64,000 bases of DNA from Patescibacteria group bacterium. GTDB taxonomy: Bacteria; Patescibacteriota; Patescibacteriia; SG8-24; DYFX01. The DNA lies in contig JBBTWH010000001.1 in the NCBI GenBank assembly GCA_038062835.1, positions 42,982 to 106,981 on the forward strand, written 5' to 3'. Shown here piece after piece: positions 8,847 to 55,073 of this stretch. Numbering within the stretch: position 1 is the first letter of the stretch; every line of letters starts with the position of its first letter. The translations under genes and the position numbers were made by a program. Under the pieces are notes generated by a model. The model saw only the letters and a list, made by a program, of their open reading frames with translations. It did not search any database and was not told the origin of the DNA.

Positions 8847-10598
8847 ATGCGCATCCCCCTCAAACCCGCCGCCCTTGCCGCCATCCTGAGCCTGATGTCG
8901 GCCGCCCTGCCGGCCGCGGCCGCTCCGGGCGACCTCGTCTCGATCGCCCTCCGCGACTTCAATCATGACGGCCGCATCGACCGTGCCGTCGTCGCCGTCG
9001 CCAACCCGAGCGGCTCGTCCTGGAGCCTCCAGGACGCCTCGGGTTTCGTCGTCGCGTACGACGGCGCCGCGCTCGCGATCTCCAAGGTCGCCGTGACCTC
9101 GCCGTCGTCCGACCCCGCCCTCGTCGAGATCGTCCTCGACGCCGCGAACCTGCCGCTCACGACGTCGGCCGCGAAGTTCGAGGTCTCCTACGCCGGCGCC
9201 GGACTCGCGGCGTTCGCCCCGGACGACGCCTCCGCCGCCGTGACGGAAAAGGACGAAGCCTCCCCGATCCTCATCGCCTCGAACCCGGCCGCGGGCTCCA
9301 TCGACGTCTACCGCAGCGCGAACATCACGCTCACGTTCAGCGAAGACGTCGACCCCGCTAGCCTCGTCCCGGCCTCCGCCCGAAACCCCGGAGCCTGGTC
9401 GTTCAGCTCCGCGGCCGCCGTCGTGACCGTCGGCCACTTCCCCTACGCGAACAACGCCGACGAAAGCTTCGGCATCGCCGCCAAGGATCTCGCCGGCAAC
9501 GCCCTCGTCGCCGGTCCGTATCCGAATCCCTTCGCCTTCCGCACCACCGACGACACCACGCCCTCCACACGCGCCGACAACGTCTTCGCGCTGACCGTCC
9601 CGGGCGCCTTCGCCGCCCTCCCGGCCGCCGGCCCTGCCCACCTCGCCTGGTACACCAACCTGGCGGATATCGCCTCCGTCCGCCTTTCCTACTCGACCGA
9701 CGCCGGCGCTTCCTACGCTCCGATCGCGACCGCGCCTGTCACGCAGGGCGTCCATGTCTGGTATCCGCCGCAGATCTCCTCGGCCTTCCAGCTGCGGGCC
9801 GAGGGCCTGAACGCCGCCGGGGTCCCGGTCGCATCATCGTTCGTGGCGCCGGTCTCGACCGTCGGCGCTTGGGCGCCCGAACCCGTGACGACGGCGCCGA
9901 GCGGCGCGCCTGATACGGCCGCCCCGGCCCTGACCGCCCCGGCCGTCATCGACCGATTCGACGCGACGGCCAGGAGCGCCAAGATGACCTGGACCACCGA
10001 CGAGCCCTCGCGGTTCGAGGTGAGCTACGGCTCCGAACTGAATTTCTCCGGCCGCGCCGAAAGCGCCGCCCTCACGACGTCCCACGAGATCACGCTGACG
10101 GGCCTCACGCCCGGCGCCTTGCATCAGGCGCGCATCACCTCGTTCGACGCCAAAGGCAACGCCGCCGTCTCGCGCGACTACTGGTTCGTCTTCCTGCGCG
10201 AAGGCGACCTTATCAAGGGAGAGGGCCCGGCCGTGTACTGGTACAAGGCCGGCAAGCGCTCCGCTTTCCCCCACCTCGACGTCTACCGCTCCTGGTTCGG
10301 CGAAGACTTCTCCAAGATCGTCCGCGTCTACGACACCCAGCTCGGCACCATCCCGTTGGGCGGGAACGTGAAGATGAAGGAAGGCGTCTACCTCATCAAG
10401 ATCCAGAGTGACCCCAAGACATACGCGGTCGAGCCGAATGGCGTCCTCCGCTGGGTGCAGACCGAGGAGCACGCAAGACAGCTTTACGGAGCCGCCTGGG
10501 CCAAGCGCGTCCGCGACGTCGACGTCAGCCTGTTCACGGACTACGCCATCGGCGCAGCGCTCGTTTCCGGAGAACGCCCGGCTGGCTACGCGAACTGA
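8847..10598 (+). CDS. secreted Ig-like/fibronectin-like repeat protein with conserved C-terminal ~110-aa module
   Basis: Signal peptide MRIPLKPAALAAILSLMSAALPAAAAP, then Ala/Pro-rich beta-rich repeats. The C-terminus is homologous to the C-terminus of the 52932-54863 protein (IPLGGN...KIQSDPKTY...ARQLYG). Confidence 0.6.
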   Translation: MRIPLKPAALAAILSLMSAALPAAAAPGDLVSIALRDFNHDGRIDRAVVAVANPSGSSWSLQDASGFVVAYDGAALAISKVAVTSPSSDPALVEIVLDAANLPLTTSAAKFEVSYAGAGLAAFAPDDASAAVTEKDEASPILIASNPAAGSIDVYRSANITLTFSEDVDPASLVPASARNPGAWSFSSAAAVVTVGHFPYANNADESFGIAAKDLAGNALVAGPYPNPFAFRTTDDTTPSTRADNVFALTVPGAFAALPAAGPAHLAWYTNLADIASVRLSYSTDAGASYAPIATAPVTQGVHVWYPPQISSAFQLRAEGLNAAGVPVASSFVAPVSTVGAWAPEPVTTAPSGAPDTAAPALTAPAVIDRFDATARSAKMTWTTDEPSRFEVSYGSELNFSGRAESAALTTSHEITLTGLTPGALHQARITSFDAKGNAAVSRDYWFVFLREGDLIKGEGPAVYWYKAGKRSAFPHLDVYRSWFGEDFSKIVRVYDTQLGTIPLGGNVKMKEGVYLIKIQSDPKTYAVEPNGVLRWVQTEEHARQLYGAAWAKRVRDVDVSLFTDYAIGAALVSGERPAGYAN

Positions 10599-49215: not shown

Positions 49216-49869
49216 CTACTTCTGCGTCCAGTGCGCTTCGCCTTTCTGCACCGCGATGATCTCCCCCGTCGCCCCTTGCGCGGAGAGCGAAGCGGCGTTG
49301 GCTTCGTCGGTGTCGAGATGGATGTTCATGCGGAAGCTCGGATGCACGCGCACCGCCACGTTGTGGACGGTGATCGGCGTCTCGCCCGGCACGCGGACCG
49401 AGATCAGGTCGCCGTTCTTCAGGCCGAGCGTCTCCGCCTCCTTGTCGGAGCAATGCAAATGCCGCTCGTCGTTGATGACGCCTTCGGCAAGCTCGACGGA
49501 ACCTTTCGGACCGACCAGCTCGCACGCGGCGGTCCCGGCGAGGTCGCCGGAGATGCGCACTGGCGTCATGATGCCCAAGCGATAGCCGTCGGAGAACGCC
49601 AGTTCGACCTGTGACTGCTTGCGGCACGGTCCGAGCACGCGCGCCTCGAACTGCCCCTTCGTCCCTTTGACGACGACTTTTTCCTCATACGCGTATTGCC
49701 CCGTCTGCGAGAGCTCCTTCAGGACCTTCATCTGGTAGCCGGAGCCGAAAAGGACGTCCTGGTGCTCCCGGGAAAGATGGACGTGGCGGGCGGAATATTC
49801 GATGCGCACCGAGACGCCGACGGCCGGATGCCCGGCGACGGAATCGAGCGGCAGGGGTTCATTCGTCAT
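49216..49869 (-). CDS. pduL: phosphate acyltransferase PduL-family (phosphotransacetylase/propanoyltransferase)
   Basis: Two PduL repeats, with the ARHVHLS motif. Pairs with ackA. Confidence 0.75.
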   Translation of the reverse strand: MTNEPLPLDSVAGHPAVGVSVRIEYSARHVHLSREHQDVLFGSGYQMKVLKELSQTGQYAYEEKVVVKGTKGQFEARVLGPCRKQSQVELAFSDGYRLGIMTPVRISGDLAGTAACELVGPKGSVELAEGVINDERHLHCSDKEAETLGLKNGDLISVRVPGETPITVHNVAVRVHPSFRMNIHLDTDEANAASLSAQGATGEIIAVQKGEAHWTQK

Positions 49870-50335
49870 AATGCTTCACGATGGGCGTTTCGTCGTAACG
49901 GAGGAAGAAGCGTACCACGCGGGCGATGAGCGTCTTCTCCTTGGTGATGCCGAACTTCTTGAGACGCGAGGCCGGCGCGCGGAAGGTCGTCACGGCCCAT
50001 TCGATCAGGCGCGCGTTCGACTTCACGACCATGCCGAGGATGCCGGTCTTCCACTTCGGCGCCGACAACCGCTTGTTCACGATCTTGATGGCGGAATCGG
50101 GACAGACGCGCTCGCAGGTCTCGCAGCCGATGCACTTGTCGAGGTCGATGACGATGGCCGGCTCGCCGAGCATGCCGAGCTTCTTGGTGTCCCAGCTGAT
50201 GGCGTTCACGGGGCACTTCATCACGCACTCGCCGCAGGATTTGCAAAGCCCGGTGAACCGCGTGACGCGGACCTTGGCGTTCTCCTCGGTGTGCGGTTCG
50301 AGGCGCTTGAGCTCTTCGGGCGTGTTGCGGTCCAT
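49859..50335 (-). CDS. porD: 2-oxoacid:ferredoxin oxidoreductase delta subunit (2x[4Fe-4S] ferredoxin)
   Basis: Has two clusters, CKSCGECVMKCP and CIGCETCERVCP. Confidence 0.75.
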   Translation of the reverse strand: MDRNTPEELKRLEPHTEENAKVRVTRFTGLCKSCGECVMKCPVNAISWDTKKLGMLGEPAIVIDLDKCIGCETCERVCPDSAIKIVNKRLSAPKWKTGILGMVVKSNARLIEWAVTTFRAPASRLKKFGITKEKTLIARVVRFFLRYDETPIVKHYDE

Positions 50336-50336
50336 A

Positions 50337-50888
50337 TCAGGCGTGGGAATAGCCGATGTCGAAGGCCTTCTCGTTCAGTTCCTTGAGCGCAGGGTCCACC
50401 TCGTACTTGGACTTGAACTGCTTCTCGATGCCAGCCAGGAAGCTGTCGCGGTCGAGCCCGGGAATCGTCTTCACCATCGCGCCCATCATGATCATGTTGA
50501 AGACGCGCGGCTTCTTCAGCTCCTCTTTGGCGATGCGGCCGGCGTCGATCTGCCTCGGATTCCAGCGCGTGATCTGCGCGACGTCCTTCACCAGGAAGCT
50601 GTTCACGATAATCTTCGTGTCGTCCTTGAGGTAGTTGAAGATACGCGGCACAGCGCGCTGGGAGAGCGCGACCCATAGGTCCGCCTTGGCGAACTTCGGA
50701 TACGCGAGATCCGTGTCGCTGATTTGCGCCCAGGCTTCGGTCACGCCGCCGCGCTTCTCGGTCGAGAAGTACGGCACGTAGACCGCCTTCTTCCCCTGAA
50801 GGAAGGCGGTGTAGGCGATGATCTTGGCGATGGACTGCACGCCCTGCCCCCCCTCGCCGCTGATGATGATCTTGTACGGCTGGCTCAT
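50337..50888 (-). CDS. porG: 2-oxoacid:ferredoxin oxidoreductase gamma subunit
   Basis: IIISGEGGQGV motif, POR_gamma domain. Confidence 0.8.
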   Translation of the reverse strand: MSQPYKIIISGEGGQGVQSIAKIIAYTAFLQGKKAVYVPYFSTEKRGGVTEAWAQISDTDLAYPKFAKADLWVALSQRAVPRIFNYLKDDTKIIVNSFLVKDVAQITRWNPRQIDAGRIAKEELKKPRVFNMIMMGAMVKTIPGLDRDSFLAGIEKQFKSKYEVDPALKELNEKAFDIGYSHA

Positions 50889-50889
50889 A

Positions 50890-51621
50890 TCAGAAATATC
50901 CCAGCTTGAACGCCTTCGCGAGCTTCCCTTCGAGGATCTCGAAGGTCTTGTCGGGATGCTCGACGGTGCCCCAGTTCAGCGTGCAGGGCGAAAGCACTTC
51001 GAGGAAGGCGAAGCCCTTGCCGTCGATGACGTGCCGGAGGCCTTCCTTCATCAGGTCGCGGAGCGCGAGCTGCCGCGTGGTGATGCCGCGCGCGATCCAG
51101 GCGCTCGGGTTCACGTGGCGGATGAGGTCGGGACCTTTGATGAAATGATCGTCCGCGCCGTACGGCGTGGTGGCCGTCTTCATGCCGGGGAGCGTCGTGG
51201 GCGCTTCCTGTCCGCCCGTCATCCCGTAGACGGCGTTGTTCACGACGATGACGAGGACGTCCTCATCGCGGATGGCGGCGCTCAGGAGTCCGCCCATTCC
51301 TATGGCGTAGGCGCCGCCGTCGCCGACGTACGCGACCGCGACGGCGTCGGGGTTGCCGCGCTTGAGTCCGCACATCGTCGGGACGGTGCGGCCGTGATGC
51401 GTCTCGATGGTGTCGATGTTGAAATAATCGTAGGCCAGGAGCGAACAGCCGATGTCGACGCCGAAGGCCACGCGCCGCTGGATGCCGAGATCGTCGATGG
51501 CGAAACCGAAGGCCTTGAGGACCTCGGGATGTCCGCAGCCGGGACAGAAAAGATGCGGCTTCGATTCAAGCCGTACGCACTTGGGATAGGCGAGATGAAT
51601 GCTGGGGGCATTCATAAGCAA
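50890..51621 (-). CDS. porB: 2-oxoacid:ferredoxin oxidoreductase beta subunit (TPP-binding)
   Basis: CPGCGH, GDGG and a TPP-binding fold. Confidence 0.85.
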   Translation of the reverse strand: MLMNAPSIHLAYPKCVRLESKPHLFCPGCGHPEVLKAFGFAIDDLGIQRRVAFGVDIGCSLLAYDYFNIDTIETHHGRTVPTMCGLKRGNPDAVAVAYVGDGGAYAIGMGGLLSAAIRDEDVLVIVVNNAVYGMTGGQEAPTTLPGMKTATTPYGADDHFIKGPDLIRHVNPSAWIARGITTRQLALRDLMKEGLRHVIDGKGFAFLEVLSPCTLNWGTVEHPDKTFEILEGKLAKAFKLGYF

Positions 51622-51745
51622 AAAGCCAAAAGTTCAAAGCAAGAAGCTGGAAGCCAAAGGTCAAAATTCAAAAGCCCGAGCTTTTTTCTTGCAGCTTCTG
51701 ACTTCCCGCTTTTGGCCTTTGACTTTTGGCTTTTTGCTTTCATAT
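51622..51745. repeat. AT-rich about 120-nt imperfect long hairpin between porA and porB (encodes K-rich mini-ORF MKAKSQKSKAKSGKSEAARKK... on minus strand)
   Basis: Left arm gcaaaaagccaaaagttcaaag... and right arm ...ctttgacttttggctttttgc. Local GC is far below its surroundings. Confidence 0.45.
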
Positions 51746-52864
51746 TCAGGCGTTCTTGATGAGTTCCACGATCTCCTCGGGATAGATGCCGATGGAGGGG
51801 CGGAAGTGTTCGATCATCTTCGGGCCGGGCATGTCGTACAAACCGTCGCGCACGATGCGGGCGAGCTGGTTGATGGCGGACTCGGCGAGAATGATGGTGT
51901 CGGCGCCCTTCGCCGCTTCGAGCAGGGCCTTCCGCGGGAACGGATTGATGGTGATGGGACGGAAGAGGCGCGCCTTGCCGCCGGTGGCGTCGATGGCGGC
52001 CTTGGCGGCCTGCGAGACGATGCCGTGCGCGACGACGAGCACCTTGGCGTTCGGGTCGCCGTACGACTCGTGCTCCTCGATGTCCGGCGCCATCTTGTCC
52101 CAAGCGGCCTTGATCTCCATGTTCACCTGGAGCGTCTCCTCTTCGAGGTTCAGGCAGTTGCGGTAACAGGAATATTCCACGCCGTCCTGGACGCGGATGT
52201 GCACTTCGGGTTTCGGCACGACTTCGTTGATGGGCCGATCGCGCTTTTCTTCGAGCAAGTAGCGTTCCGTCGGCACCGTCTCGATGCCGCGCGAAGCGGG
52301 ATCGTACAGCTCGACCTCGCCCATCATCTTGGCCTGGTAGCCGTCGGAAAGCAGGAAGGTCGGGAAACGATATTTCCAGGCGATGTTGAAGACCTTGATG
52401 CCGTAGTCGTAGAGCTCCTGCAGGGTCGCCGTCGAATAGACGATGCGGTAGCCGTTGCCGTTGCCGCCGTAGGCGGTGAGGTTCACTTCGGATTGCGAAT
52501 AGATGACGGTGGAGGTGGACGGGCCGCCGCGCATGTTGATGTAGGCGACGGTCGGCGTGCGCATCGCCTCCGCCATCGAGAAAGCGTCCTGCATCAGGAT
52601 GTTGCCGGGACCGGCGGTGACGGTGAAGGAGCGGCGCCCGGCCAAGGTGGAGCCGAGCAGCATGAACGACGCGCCGATCTCATCCTCGGCCTGTACGAAC
52701 ACCATGTCGTCCTTCTTCCCCTGCTCCGAACCGGCCTCCTTCGCCCACCAAAGCAAAATCTCCGACCCTGGCGTGATCGGATACCCATACATGGCCGTCG
52801 CCCCGGCAGCGCGCGCCGCCCGAGCCAGGACCTCGTTGCCCATCATGAACTGTTTTTCGGGCAT
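51746..52864 (-). CDS. porA: 2-oxoacid (pyruvate/2-ketoisovalerate):ferredoxin oxidoreductase alpha subunit
   Basis: MPEKQFMMGNEVLARAARAAGATAMYGYPITPGSEI, POR_N domain. The -10 TGcTATACT lies 6 nt before ATG. Confidence 0.85.
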   Translation of the reverse strand: MPEKQFMMGNEVLARAARAAGATAMYGYPITPGSEILLWWAKEAGSEQGKKDDMVFVQAEDEIGASFMLLGSTLAGRRSFTVTAGPGNILMQDAFSMAEAMRTPTVAYINMRGGPSTSTVIYSQSEVNLTAYGGNGNGYRIVYSTATLQELYDYGIKVFNIAWKYRFPTFLLSDGYQAKMMGEVELYDPASRGIETVPTERYLLEEKRDRPINEVVPKPEVHIRVQDGVEYSCYRNCLNLEEETLQVNMEIKAAWDKMAPDIEEHESYGDPNAKVLVVAHGIVSQAAKAAIDATGGKARLFRPITINPFPRKALLEAAKGADTIILAESAINQLARIVRDGLYDMPGPKMIEHFRPSIGIYPEEIVELIKNA

Positions 52865-52881
52865 GCCCGCAGTATAGCAAA
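52799..52881 (-). repeat. 83-bp direct repeat copy A (porA promoter + codons 1-22)
   Basis: Matches 54798-54880 at 80 of 83 positions. Confidence 0.85.
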
Positions 52882-52900
52882 CAAGGCCCCGAAGGGCCTT
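52877..52900 (-). terminator. hairpin (aaggccc-cgaa-gggcctt) after beta-helix gene / before porA promoter
   Basis: Perfect 7-bp stem. Confidence 0.4.
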
Positions 52901-52931: not shown

Positions 52932-54863
52932 TCATCCAGACAACGGGGTACCGACCGTGTAATTCACCCAGAAAGCGTCAGAGACGTCGTCGATCATGCG
53001 ATTCCATCCGTCGCCGTACAGCTGACGCGCCGCCGCCTCCGACGGCACCAAGCGGAGGATGCCCGCGCGCGAAACCACGTAGACTTTAGGGTCGCTCTGG
53101 ACCTTGATCATGCGAGCGCCTGGCCGGTAGGTGATGTTGCCGCCAAGGGGGATGCCCGCCAGCGTCGCGTCAGAAACAGTCGCGATGCCGTTGAAGTCGG
53201 CGTACCAGGTGAAATAGGCCCTGTCGTTCACGAAGACGTAGCGTTTACCGTCGGCGCCGCAGTAATAGACCGCCGGCAACGTTCCCCTGACGCGCGATCC
53301 GGAGACGCAGGGCGGCGAGGAAGCGGTGGTGAGGCGCTTGTCCGTATTGATGTCCCACGTCGAAGCCATCGCGACCATCGCCGTGTAGTCGCCCGCCACG
53401 GTCGGATCGGTCGCCGGCGGAATGGATCTTCCCGAACCATCGGGGTCATAGCCGTTACGCGCTTCGTCGCCGTCCTTGAATCCATCGCCGTCCGTGTCAG
53501 GATTCGACGGGTTCGTATTGAAATGCCCGGTCTCCTCGGCATCGGAAAGCCCGTCGCCGTCGGTATCCGCCGGCAACAGTGCGGATGGTGGCGCGGGTGT
53601 GGGTGTGGGTGTGGGTGTGGGTGTGGGTGTGGGTGTGGAACCCGGCGCCGTGCAGGCCAGCGGCGCATGGGCCTTGGCAGACTGACAGATGTTGCCGCCG
53701 CCGTCGACGACCATGCTTTGGGGACCGAAGAGGAGCCCGTTTCCCGTAACGCCGAAATCGTTGGCAGTAAAGACGTTGTTCGAAAGGATAAAATCGCCGG
53801 AGCCGATATCGTGGCCGTCCTGTGGGATGTTCGCCACGGCGACGCTCGAGAAATCGAACTCGGCGTTGAAATCGGCGGGACTCGCGGCATTCAATACGCG
53901 ATTGCCGCGGAACGTGTTATCCGTGAAATAGACCTTGCTTTCCGACGGCTTGAAACGGTACGCCCGGAAGAAATAGAACATCCGCGCCGAACCGCCCTCG
54001 ACCGTATTATCGGAGACGGTGTTCGATTTCCAGCTGTTGAAGTACCAGCCGCCGATGCCGCAGACCAGCGAGCGGTGGATCCGATTGCGGTCGAAGATCG
54101 TCCGTTCAATGAGGCCTACCGTCTCGATCCCGCAATCGTAGTTTCCCGCGGTATCGTTATCCCGGACCACGTCATCGCTCTCGTCGATCAGCACGATGCC
54201 GTCATCGAGCCCGAGATGATCCGCAGGCGCGTCCCTGCCAGTCAGGGTATTGGCCGTAATCGCGTTCCGGCGGCCGTTCGAGACGCTGATGAGCGCGGGA
54301 ACGTCGAACGTGGCCGTCCGCATCGAGAGCGTGTTGCGCTCGATCTTGCTGTCAGACGAGCCGTTGAAGGTGAGCGCCGCCGCCATGGTGTTGTCGTGGA
54401 CATCGATGAACGATGAGTCATTGATGCTCGCGTCGATGTACGCATCGGACGAAGATGTCGTCAGGGTATTGCCGGTGATCTCGCCGCGCGTGCCTCGGAC
54501 GACGTAGAGGAAGGAGCGGTGCTGAGCGCCATCATCCTTGGTATTGAACCTGCAATTCTTGAGCGTGAAATCGCTGACGTCGGTGAACTCGAACGCCCGG
54601 TAGAAGTCGTTGATCGTGTTGTTCTGGCAATCGATGACGACATCGTGCGTGTCGTGGATGCTGAAACACGGCGTTCCGACGTTCGTCGACAAGGTCTGTT
54701 CGAGGACGTATGTGCCGCTTGCAGTGATTTCCCGGCAACTGGAAAGCACCATCGGGGCATCCGCCGCCGCCGTGAAGGGAACGAGCAGCATCAGGACCGC
54801 CCCGGCAGCGCGCGCCGCCCGAGCCAGGACCTCGTTGCCCATCATGAACTGCTTTTCGGCCAT
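52932..54863 (-). CDS. secreted right-handed parallel beta-helix repeat protein with TSP3-like Asp-rich repeats, (PT)7 linker and conserved C-terminal module
   Basis: The N-terminal 22 aa are copied from PorA and continue into an h-region and AxA site (AVLMLLVPFTAAADA). Has NTxT beta-helix repeats, DTDGDGLSD...DTDGDGFKDGDE and PTPTPTPTPTPTPT. The C-terminus is homologous to the C-terminus of 8847-10598. Confidence 0.65.
   Translation of the reverse strand: MAEKQFMMGNEVLARAARAAGAVLMLLVPFTAAADAPMVLSSCREITASGTYVLEQTLSTNVGTPCFSIHDTHDVVIDCQNNTINDFYRAFEFTDVSDFTLKNCRFNTKDDGAQHRSFLYVVRGTRGEITGNTLTTSSSDAYIDASINDSSFIDVHDNTMAAALTFNGSSDSKIERNTLSMRTATFDVPALISVSNGRRNAITANTLTGRDAPADHLGLDDGIVLIDESDDVVRDNDTAGNYDCGIETVGLIERTIFDRNRIHRSLVCGIGGWYFNSWKSNTVSDNTVEGGSARMFYFFRAYRFKPSESKVYFTDNTFRGNRVLNAASPADFNAEFDFSSVAVANIPQDGHDIGSGDFILSNNVFTANDFGVTGNGLLFGPQSMVVDGGGNICQSAKAHAPLACTAPGSTPTPTPTPTPTPTPAPPSALLPADTDGDGLSDAEETGHFNTNPSNPDTDGDGFKDGDEARNGYDPDGSGRSIPPATDPTVAGDYTAMVAMASTWDINTDKRLTTASSPPCVSGSRVRGTLPAVYYCGADGKRYVFVNDRAYFTWYADFNGIATVSDATLAGIPLGGNITYRPGARMIKVQSDPKVYVVSRAGILRLVPSEAAARQLYGDGWNRMIDDVSDAFWVNYTVGTPLSG
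53595..53638. repeat. (GGGTGT)7 hexanucleotide microsatellite encoding the (PT)7 linker
   Basis: Seven perfect tandem copies inside the CDS. Confidence 0.85.
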
Positions 54864-54880
54864 GCCCGCAGTATATCAAA
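54798..54880 (-). repeat. 83-bp direct repeat copy B (promoter TGaTATACT + start + 22 codons of beta-helix protein)
   Basis: See 52799-52881. Confidence 0.85.
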
Positions 54881-55073
54881 AAAGAGGGGCGGCGGCGTCA
54901 TCGGTCGCGAGCTGGCGCCGGGAAGAGGTATGTCGCTGTTGGAACGGACGCTGCGCTCGCGACCGCTGCCGCCGCCTTGGTGGGGACAAGAACCACACTG
55001 ATTCGAGGCTTGACATTTCGCCTCCGAGGTGGTAGACCGGCGCGGTACGCAACCCGTGAAAGGAGTTCATTCG

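Follow-up and report, generated by a model that had tools for sequence, protein, structure and literature searches.

Two genes in the window, by which we mean the whole 64-kb stretch of DNA that was analyzed (part of a metagenome-assembled genome of uncultured groundwater Patescibacteria), encode proteins with different bodies and a common C-terminal module. Protein A, whose start codon agrees with gene calls from other assemblies, consists of a signal-like N terminus, a Big_5 domain at residues 136 to 233 (E 1.3e-6 in a Pfam scan), a weak fn3 domain at residues 372 to 440, and the module at the C terminus; its gene neighbors those for an adenosine deaminase and an Rce1-like protease. In protein B, a signal-like N terminus is followed by a right-handed beta-helix of the NosD-like type, a Pro-Thr linker, bacterial TSP3 repeats, and the C-terminal module, with Pfam matches to Beta_helix (E 1.6e-11), NosD, and TSP3_bac. 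A 2-oxoacid:ferredoxin oxidoreductase is encoded next to it. Three alternative start codons were considered for protein B, none of which matches a gene call on record exactly, so the start of this protein is unconfirmed. Both proteins have one N-terminal hydrophobic segment of the signal-peptide type, and neither a second membrane-spanning segment nor an LPXTG motif was detected in either. The same genes are present in assemblies from Hainich groundwater. The features are as follows:

8847..10598, + strand: gene of protein A, 583 aa (NCBI MEK7545498.1, product name "Ig-like domain-containing protein")
10200..10562, + strand: module copy A, residues 452-572 of protein A, two tandem repeats (family HMM, E 3.8e-46)
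10200..10373, + strand: repeat 1 of module A, beta-beta-beta-alpha-beta-alpha (single-repeat HMM, E 4.5e-21)
10383..10562, + strand: repeat 2 of module A, beta-beta-beta-alpha-beta-alpha (single-repeat HMM, E 2e-23; separate model, pLDDT 82)
52932..54863, - strand: gene of protein B, 643 aa counted from the first ATG
52941..53303, - strand: module copy B, residues 521-641 of protein B, two tandem repeats (family HMM, E 2.3e-55)
53130-53303, - strand: repeat 1 of module B (repeat HMM, E 8.7e-24)
52941-53123, - strand: repeat 2 of module B (repeat HMM, E 1.3e-24)

When protein A (8847-10595, + strand) was compared with protein B (52935-54863, - strand) by BLASTP, a single significant alignment was obtained, matching residues 453 to 572 of A with residues 522 to 641 of B (52 of 121 positions identical, or 43%; 2 gaps; E 1e-26). 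Every segment outside the module had E >= 2.5. The original prediction had claimed that the C termini of the two proteins align through a series of motifs (AVYW/Y, GKR, IPLGGN, IK(I/V)QSDPK, LR, ARQLYG, and W). All of these motifs are present, and the alignment of the two proteins is confined to the module. Its description of the remaining bodies as unrelated, one Ig-like and the other a beta-helix, agrees with the Pfam assignments (Big_5 versus Beta_helix/NosD). The limits of the module, however, had to be moved: a start at 10260 and a length of about 110 aa had been proposed, but the family HMM delimits a module of about 121 aa at 10200-10562, and the proposed start was therefore about 60 nt late. 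Positions 10563-10598, beyond the end of module A, encode an 11-residue tail and the stop codon. All six frames of the 64-kb window were scanned by tblastn and HMM, and no third copy of the module was detected. A Cys pair is conserved in about one third of modules, module B among them, as would be expected of a domain located outside the cytoplasm. A uniformly basic charge was not found among the modules: the median pI was 6.5 (range, 4.1 to 9.8), with values of 8.8 for module A and 9.1 for module B.

The module was modeled with AlphaFold2 from a 59-sequence alignment (mean pLDDT, 95.4; pTM, 0.84). Its predicted secondary structure is beta-beta-beta-alpha-beta-alpha, two times in tandem. In a profile-profile comparison with hhalign, the two halves aligned over their full length (E 5e-6, probability 86%), and MAFFT placed them in register with the common pattern G-x-L-I-K ... 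V-Y ... G ... R ... Y/W-G ... W ... D ... Y-x-x-G. Since the halves align with each other, the module represents an internal tandem duplication of a unit of ~60 residues, and this unit is confidently predicted to fold as a four-stranded sheet with two helices.

We compared these models with known structures by Foldseek, using both the whole module and repeat 2, which was modeled alone (pLDDT 82) to serve as a single-unit query. Against the PDB, repeat 2 matched the repeat domains of EccB1 and EccB5 (entries 4kk7, 5cyu, 5ebd, and 7nps) with a TM score of 0.64-0.69 and an rmsd of 2.2-2.7 Å over 57-65 columns (probability, 0.96-1.0). For the whole module, EccB of ESX-1, ESX-3, and ESX-5 accounted for all top ten PDB matches (E from 4e-3, probability up to 0.97). 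In these matches, the TM score was about 0.35 and the rmsd about 13 Å, so the two units are oriented otherwise than in EccB. Repeat 2 also matched the wall-binding domain of the enterococcal phage endolysin LysIME-EF1, more weakly than it matched EccB (TM 0.49-0.53, rmsd about 5 Å). In the literature, the EccB1 repeats are described as four-stranded sheets with two helices, similar to the wall-binding phage subunit PlyCB (PMC4769845); in the LysIME-EF1 binding domain, two helices are reported to cap a four-stranded sheet (PMC7098653). Among viral predicted structures, the best match to the whole module was an uncharacterized Rhodococcus phage protein (TM 0.65/0.76, rmsd 2.9 Å, 127 columns); matches of the whole module to CHAP, lysin, and amidase proteins in this set were not significant.

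By sequence, no model in Pfam, NCBIfam, or PHROGs matched the module, in keeping with the remark in the original prediction that it belongs to no recognized family. That prediction had also raised a match to a known binding domain (SH3b, CW_binding, or PEGA) as the contrary outcome. In neither protein A nor protein B did the Pfam and NCBIfam searches return any of these domains, or SLH, CWB2, LysM, or PG_binding, at E <= 1. Searches of PDB sequences with three profiles (built from two sequences, 59 sequences, and the single repeat) yielded no significant match. The top PDB sequence matches, to designed beta-propellers and antibody heavy chains, were rejected as spurious because they reflect short hairpin motifs (YAINPNGKLKW and DTAVYYC). 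The module was not found in a search of 50,697 phage genomes, and we found no description of it in the literature searched on EccB, PlyCB, the S-layer, and Patescibacteria.

Relatives in other genomes number in the thousands, at 40-60% identity. A profile built from the two copies in the window recovered 71 metagenomic proteins (E down to 1e-54), all named "hypothetical" and with no Pfam domain over the module; the sole taxon labels among them were Patescibacteria or Veblenbacteria. A 59-sequence profile was then run, with no word filter, against 1.84 billion cluster representatives (50% identity), and this search returned 5,729 clusters at E <= 1e-3, 2,924 of them at E <= 1e-30. All sampled matches with an informative taxonomic label were from Patescibacteria. 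In addition, genomes were scanned (one per species) with six trimmed modules as the query and two peptide patterns, which confirmed 454 stretches. Among the best 80 loci, informative titles named Uhrbacteria, Parcubacteria, Veblenbacteria, Falkowbacteria, Paceibacter, Minisyncoccota, and "Patescibacteria group," and several genomes contributed three or four loci each. Because the scan rests on two peptide patterns, it favors close relatives and says little about phyla beyond Patescibacteria. Many other records from the scan carry the title "uncultured Gammaproteobacteria," which we took to be a placeholder. To judge from these sequence searches, the module belongs to a large, uncatalogued family that is common across Patescibacteria. 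The HMM search of relatives and the structure prediction, which the original prediction had suggested as checks, gave a large family and a confident two-unit model (pLDDT 95.4).

We used the best 80 loci to ask what else the carrier proteins contain. These loci hold 115 module-bearing reading frames by HMM, often in tandem gene arrays, and 96 of the frames are complete. Whether all carriers are secreted had been posed as a question in the original prediction; an N-terminal hydrophobic, signal-like segment is present in 95 of the 96 complete carriers. The module follows this segment directly in 64 of the 96 (starting at residue 13-120), with more than 1,000 residues after it in some proteins, and lies at the extreme C terminus in 31. 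In the one carrier in which it is at neither end (residue 136 of 1,323), the start call is probably over-extended. Given 64 N-terminal modules among 96 carriers, the C-terminal position seen in proteins A and B is no defining property of the family. There are also free-standing forms of ~178 aa that consist of a signal peptide and the module only.

The partner domains of 92 relatives were counted by Pfam (E <= 1e-4) in two sets: 32 with a non-N-terminal module (the 31 C-terminal cases plus the one at neither end) and 60 with an N-terminal module. Peptidase_M23 was the commonest partner in the non-N-terminal set (12 of 32), followed by Peptidase_S8 (5 of 32); Big_5, Big_1/invasin, beta-helix, and DUF5122 propeller domains were also found. 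The M23 part of one carrier (L034) matches phage endolysin families. In the lysostaphin-type layout, an M23 peptidase is joined to a C-terminal targeting domain that directs it to the wall. Most proteins of the N-terminal set have no recognizable domain; the remainder include 14 with a Cupredoxin-like domain, 5 with Big_7, and 2 with CAP, as well as TPR and YHYH proteins. Also in this set is a conserved protein family, about 1,150-1,350 residues long, with abundant Ser, Thr, Ala, and Gly, few Cys residues, and no Pfam match. The gene for this ~1,200-aa protein is typically followed by a gene for an S8 peptidase or by a ~410-aa gene with a C-terminal module. Further representatives add DUF3048, PQQ propellers, fn3, and CARDB to the list of partners. 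LysM, SH3b, SLH, CWB2, and PG_binding were absent from all 92 carriers at E <= 1e-4. The view in the original prediction that a conserved module is shared by otherwise unrelated secreted proteins holds, and the module is an independently folding unit.

Beyond the domain itself, its duplication, fold, family size, positions, and partners, we infer a binding function and a class of ligand. The hypothesis that we favor, to which we give about an even chance, is that the module is a non-covalent cell-envelope anchor, analogous to SLH or CWB2. A carrier would be exported by Sec, after which its module would bind the cell's own envelope non-covalently, the ligand being peptidoglycan or a wall-linked glycopolymer; binding of this kind would hold at the cell surface those proteins that lack a membrane or sortase anchor, as the three-repeat SLH and CWB2 modules do in Firmicutes. 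Three lines of evidence led us to this proposal: the module shares its fold class with the EccB repeats and small phage wall-binding domains; the M23 peptidoglycan hydrolase is the most frequent C-terminal partner; and one module is carried both by a candidate surface-layer protein and by paralogous enzymes and adhesins without another anchor, a pattern like that of SLH and CWB2. In Bacillus, SLH proteins, and in Clostridioides difficile, CWB2 proteins likewise share one module over a surface-layer protein and paralogous enzymes and adhesins.

The original prediction had grouped anchoring with sorting and secretion recognition, and these fared differently. Anchoring is the best-supported reading, though only indirectly, through the fold likeness to EccB repeats and endolysin wall-binding domains, the M23 fusions, and the terminal placement in proteins without another anchor. 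A C-terminal signal for sorting, secretion recognition, or covalent anchoring, of the kind represented by sortase LPXTG, PEP-CTERM, or the type IX secretion C-terminal domain, would account for the C-terminal position in both window proteins, but we consider it highly improbable. The module directly follows the N-terminal signal-like segment in two thirds of complete relatives (64 of 96), and the positions of the module in its carriers rule out a sorting or secretion signal that has to be C-terminal. Moreover, the module folds well as a double domain (pLDDT 95), the carriers already have ordinary N-terminal signal-like segments, and proteins A and B lack an LPXTG motif as well as any terminal hydrophobic segment or charged tail. 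Chance similarity, or a recent duplication private to genes A and B, can be set aside almost with certainty: there are only two copies in the window, as such a duplication would produce, but these reach E 1e-26 at just 43% identity and have thousands of relatives in other genomes. A family of 5,729 clusters led us to reject a recent private duplication, and the similarity is not limited to two recently duplicated tails, an outcome that the original prediction had allowed for.

Two other hypotheses concern what the module binds. It could recognize wall or surface glycans of a host and thereby aim adhesins and lytic enzymes (M23 and S8) at host cells. Patescibacteria are largely episymbionts; the bodies of proteins A and B are of adhesin type (Ig-like, fn3, beta-helix, and TSP3); a foreign wall is the target of similarly folded wall-binding domains in phages; and the sequence and pI of the module vary widely, as expected if its targets are diverse. 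Enzymes that attack other cells, lysostaphin among them, likewise combine an M23 domain with a targeting domain. However, a protein released toward a host would need some other hold on its producer, and A and B carry no further anchor. The module is also strongly conserved across Patescibacteria classes that must differ greatly in their hosts, and it is carried by cupredoxins and by the ~1,200-aa surface protein, for which a ligand on the producer side fits better. We therefore regard binding to the host as unlikely.

Alternatively, the module could bind itself or a common scaffold such as an S-layer, in the manner of cohesin and dockerin, rather than a wall polymer. The EccB repeat, its closest solved fold, belongs to a periplasmic domain that forms ESX protein assemblies (7nps and 7np7), units of the PlyCB and LysIME-EF1 types function as octamers or tetramers, and the tandem arrays of module genes in many genomes could encode a hetero-oligomeric surface complex. 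Against this, the S-layer-like ~1,200-aa candidate itself bears the module, which makes it unlikely that the module is a mere tag for docking onto that protein, and free-standing proteins of ~178 aa contain a signal peptide and the module alone. The fusions to M23 hydrolases suggest a wall substrate, although oligomerization and wall binding are compatible. Taking these points together, we judge protein-protein docking or oligomerization to be rather improbable, with envelope anchoring as the preferred reading.

More broadly, the module may be the device by which Patescibacteria (the candidate phyla radiation) in general anchor proteins to their surface, one that binds a group-specific wall polymer and tethers a candidate S-layer protein together with surface enzymes and adhesins. 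We advance this extension only tentatively, as a possibility on the doubtful side. One preprint reports S-layer proteins in Patescibacteria. If a general anchor of this kind exists, searching any Patescibacteria genome with an HMM of the module would reveal the surface proteome, and with it candidate host-interaction proteins. Members of this group account for a large part of bacterial diversity; they are almost wholly uncultured and spend their lives attached to other cells. Little is understood of how they build and populate their surface, and the module, which marks thousands of secreted proteins, offers a handle for listing them, from peptidoglycan hydrolases, proteases, and redox proteins to adhesin-like proteins and a conserved giant surface protein. 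It also supplies a concrete, testable hypothesis for how surface proteins are retained in Patescibacteria. Shared wall-binding modules are well established as a concept, so the module adds to a known class and introduces no new principle; it is a new family within an already known kind of domain. At the same time, it extends the fold of the EccB repeats and the small phage wall-binding domains to a third, much larger context, and it could contribute to deciding whether EccB repeats bind peptidoglycan, as has been suggested without proof.

Among systems of known structure, the EccB repeats R1 to R4 (4kk7, 5cyu, 3x3m, and 7nps) are the closest in form, comprising, like the unit of the module, ~55-60 residues folded as a four-stranded sheet with two helices. 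Both EccB and the module are extracytoplasmic, with their units in packed pairs. The architectures differ: in EccB, a membrane helix at the N terminus and a central sheet domain accompany four repeats, whereas the module has two repeats and no central domain. Their settings differ as well, since EccB is a core component of the mycobacterial type VII (ESX) secretion systems and the module is instead found free, on many unrelated secreted proteins. In sequence comparisons, the module had no Pfam match to the EccB family at E <= 1, and the PDB profile reached EccB1 at E 0.06-0.33 only. Membership in the EccB family was thus rejected; the folds are alike, but there is no sequence match, the architecture is another one, and the gene neighbors of A and B given above point to no secretion-system context.

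Similar in size and composition to the unit of the module are the cell-wall-binding domains of PlyCB from streptococcal phage C1 and of LysIME-EF1 and Lys170 from enterococcal phages. In these proteins several units act jointly, eight in PlyC and four in LysIME-EF1, compared with two fused units in the module. Domains of the PlyCB and LysIME-EF1 types accompany a peptidoglycan hydrolase, as do the modules of the 12 M23 proteins, unlike those of A and B. The best matches to the whole two-repeat arrangement are predicted structures of uncharacterized proteins from two actinophages, Rhodococcus phage Weasels2 (A0A1I9SA71) and Streptomyces phage LukeCage (A0A345MGB2), which share just 12-18% identity with the module.

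The SLH and CWB2 domains differ from the module in fold and sequence, to which they are unrelated (no Pfam match), and in having three repeats rather than two. The analogy that we propose is therefore functional only. Within that limit, the resemblance is in how the domains are deployed: SLH and CWB2, like the module, are short repeats at either terminus of many paralogous secreted proteins that have no covalent anchor, and the module resembles them in its range of partners, which takes in proteases, hydrolases, adhesins, and CAP domains as well as a large candidate surface-layer protein.

In the window, gene B, which encodes the beta-helix protein with a C-terminal module (protein B), is exactly flanked by two copies of a direct repeat and lies upstream of a compact operon. 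The features relevant to this locus are as follows.

49216-52864, minus strand, compact operon downstream of gene B
51746-52864, minus strand, 2-oxoacid:ferredoxin oxidoreductase alpha-subunit gene (korA), the downstream neighbour of gene B
52799-52885 and 54798-54884, 87-nt direct repeat, copies 95% identical, spacing 1,999 nt
about 53370-53390, minus strand, DINTDKRL of protein B (aa about 492-499), some 30 residues ahead of the module
53579-53632, plus strand, (GTGTGG)n run encoding the Pro-Thr linker of protein B

Each repeat copy contains a TATACT promoter-like box together with the ATG of the oxidoreductase alpha-subunit gene and that gene's first 22 codons. Since these are the neighbour's own ATG and leading codons, the start of protein B, MAEKQFMMGNEVLARAARAAGA, was copied from the neighbour, whose counterpart reads MPEKQFMMGNEVLARAARAAGA; the charged start of protein B's apparent signal peptide comes from these copied residues. 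Gene B looks like a gene that was either inserted into the korA 5' end or duplicated with it. The copies differ at four positions, which argues against the repeat being an assembly artefact. The operon encodes the alpha, beta, and gamma subunits of a 2-oxoacid:ferredoxin oxidoreductase, a ferredoxin-like 4Fe-4S protein, and a PduL-type phosphate acyltransferase: a fermentative route from acyl-CoA to acyl-phosphate, typical of reduced genomes. Within protein B, the Pro-Thr linker (PTPTPTPTPTPTPT) joins the beta-helix to the TSP3 repeats, and the hexanucleotide run encoding it is likely to vary in length.

The short motif I-N-x-D-K-x-L is also conserved alongside the module, both in protein B, as DINTDKRL, and in the related loci from the genome scan (L001-L080). 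There, it lies directly downstream of N-terminal modules in 43 of 81 cases and directly upstream of C-terminal modules in 13 of 34; protein A, the Ig-like module protein, has no such motif. This mirror-image placement suggests that the motif packs against the module or serves as a processing site. About a third of the related modules (33 of 115) carry a conserved Cys pair, as does module B (52941-53303, minus strand); the pair is absent from module A. One Cys lies just ahead of the module and the other, 13 to 15 residues away, in the V-Y-Y-C strand. The pair probably forms a disulfide, which would fit an extracytoplasmic location.

Dozens of species-representative MAG records with the module within typical Patescibacteria gene arrays are titled "uncultured Gammaproteobacteria bacterium" (L003, L005, L008-L010, L016-L018, and many more, from third-party "binchicken"/SRP co-assemblies); this is probably a placeholder name. 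L054 and L057, labelled Acutalibacteraceae and Binatia, may be mis-binned contigs.

Module genes in the related loci also occur in groups. The module genes at L072 and L073 are small and stand in arrays of three (178, 467, and 260 aa), and some products of such arrays have cupredoxin domains. A gene pair recurs at L003, L005, L009, L017, L026, L035, L038, and L053. Its second product is either a Peptidase_S8 protein of ∼540 aa or a ∼410-aa protein with a C-terminal module. The first product, of ∼1,200 aa, is rich in Ser/Thr/Ala/Gly, has an N-terminal module and no Pfam match, and is possibly an S-layer protein.
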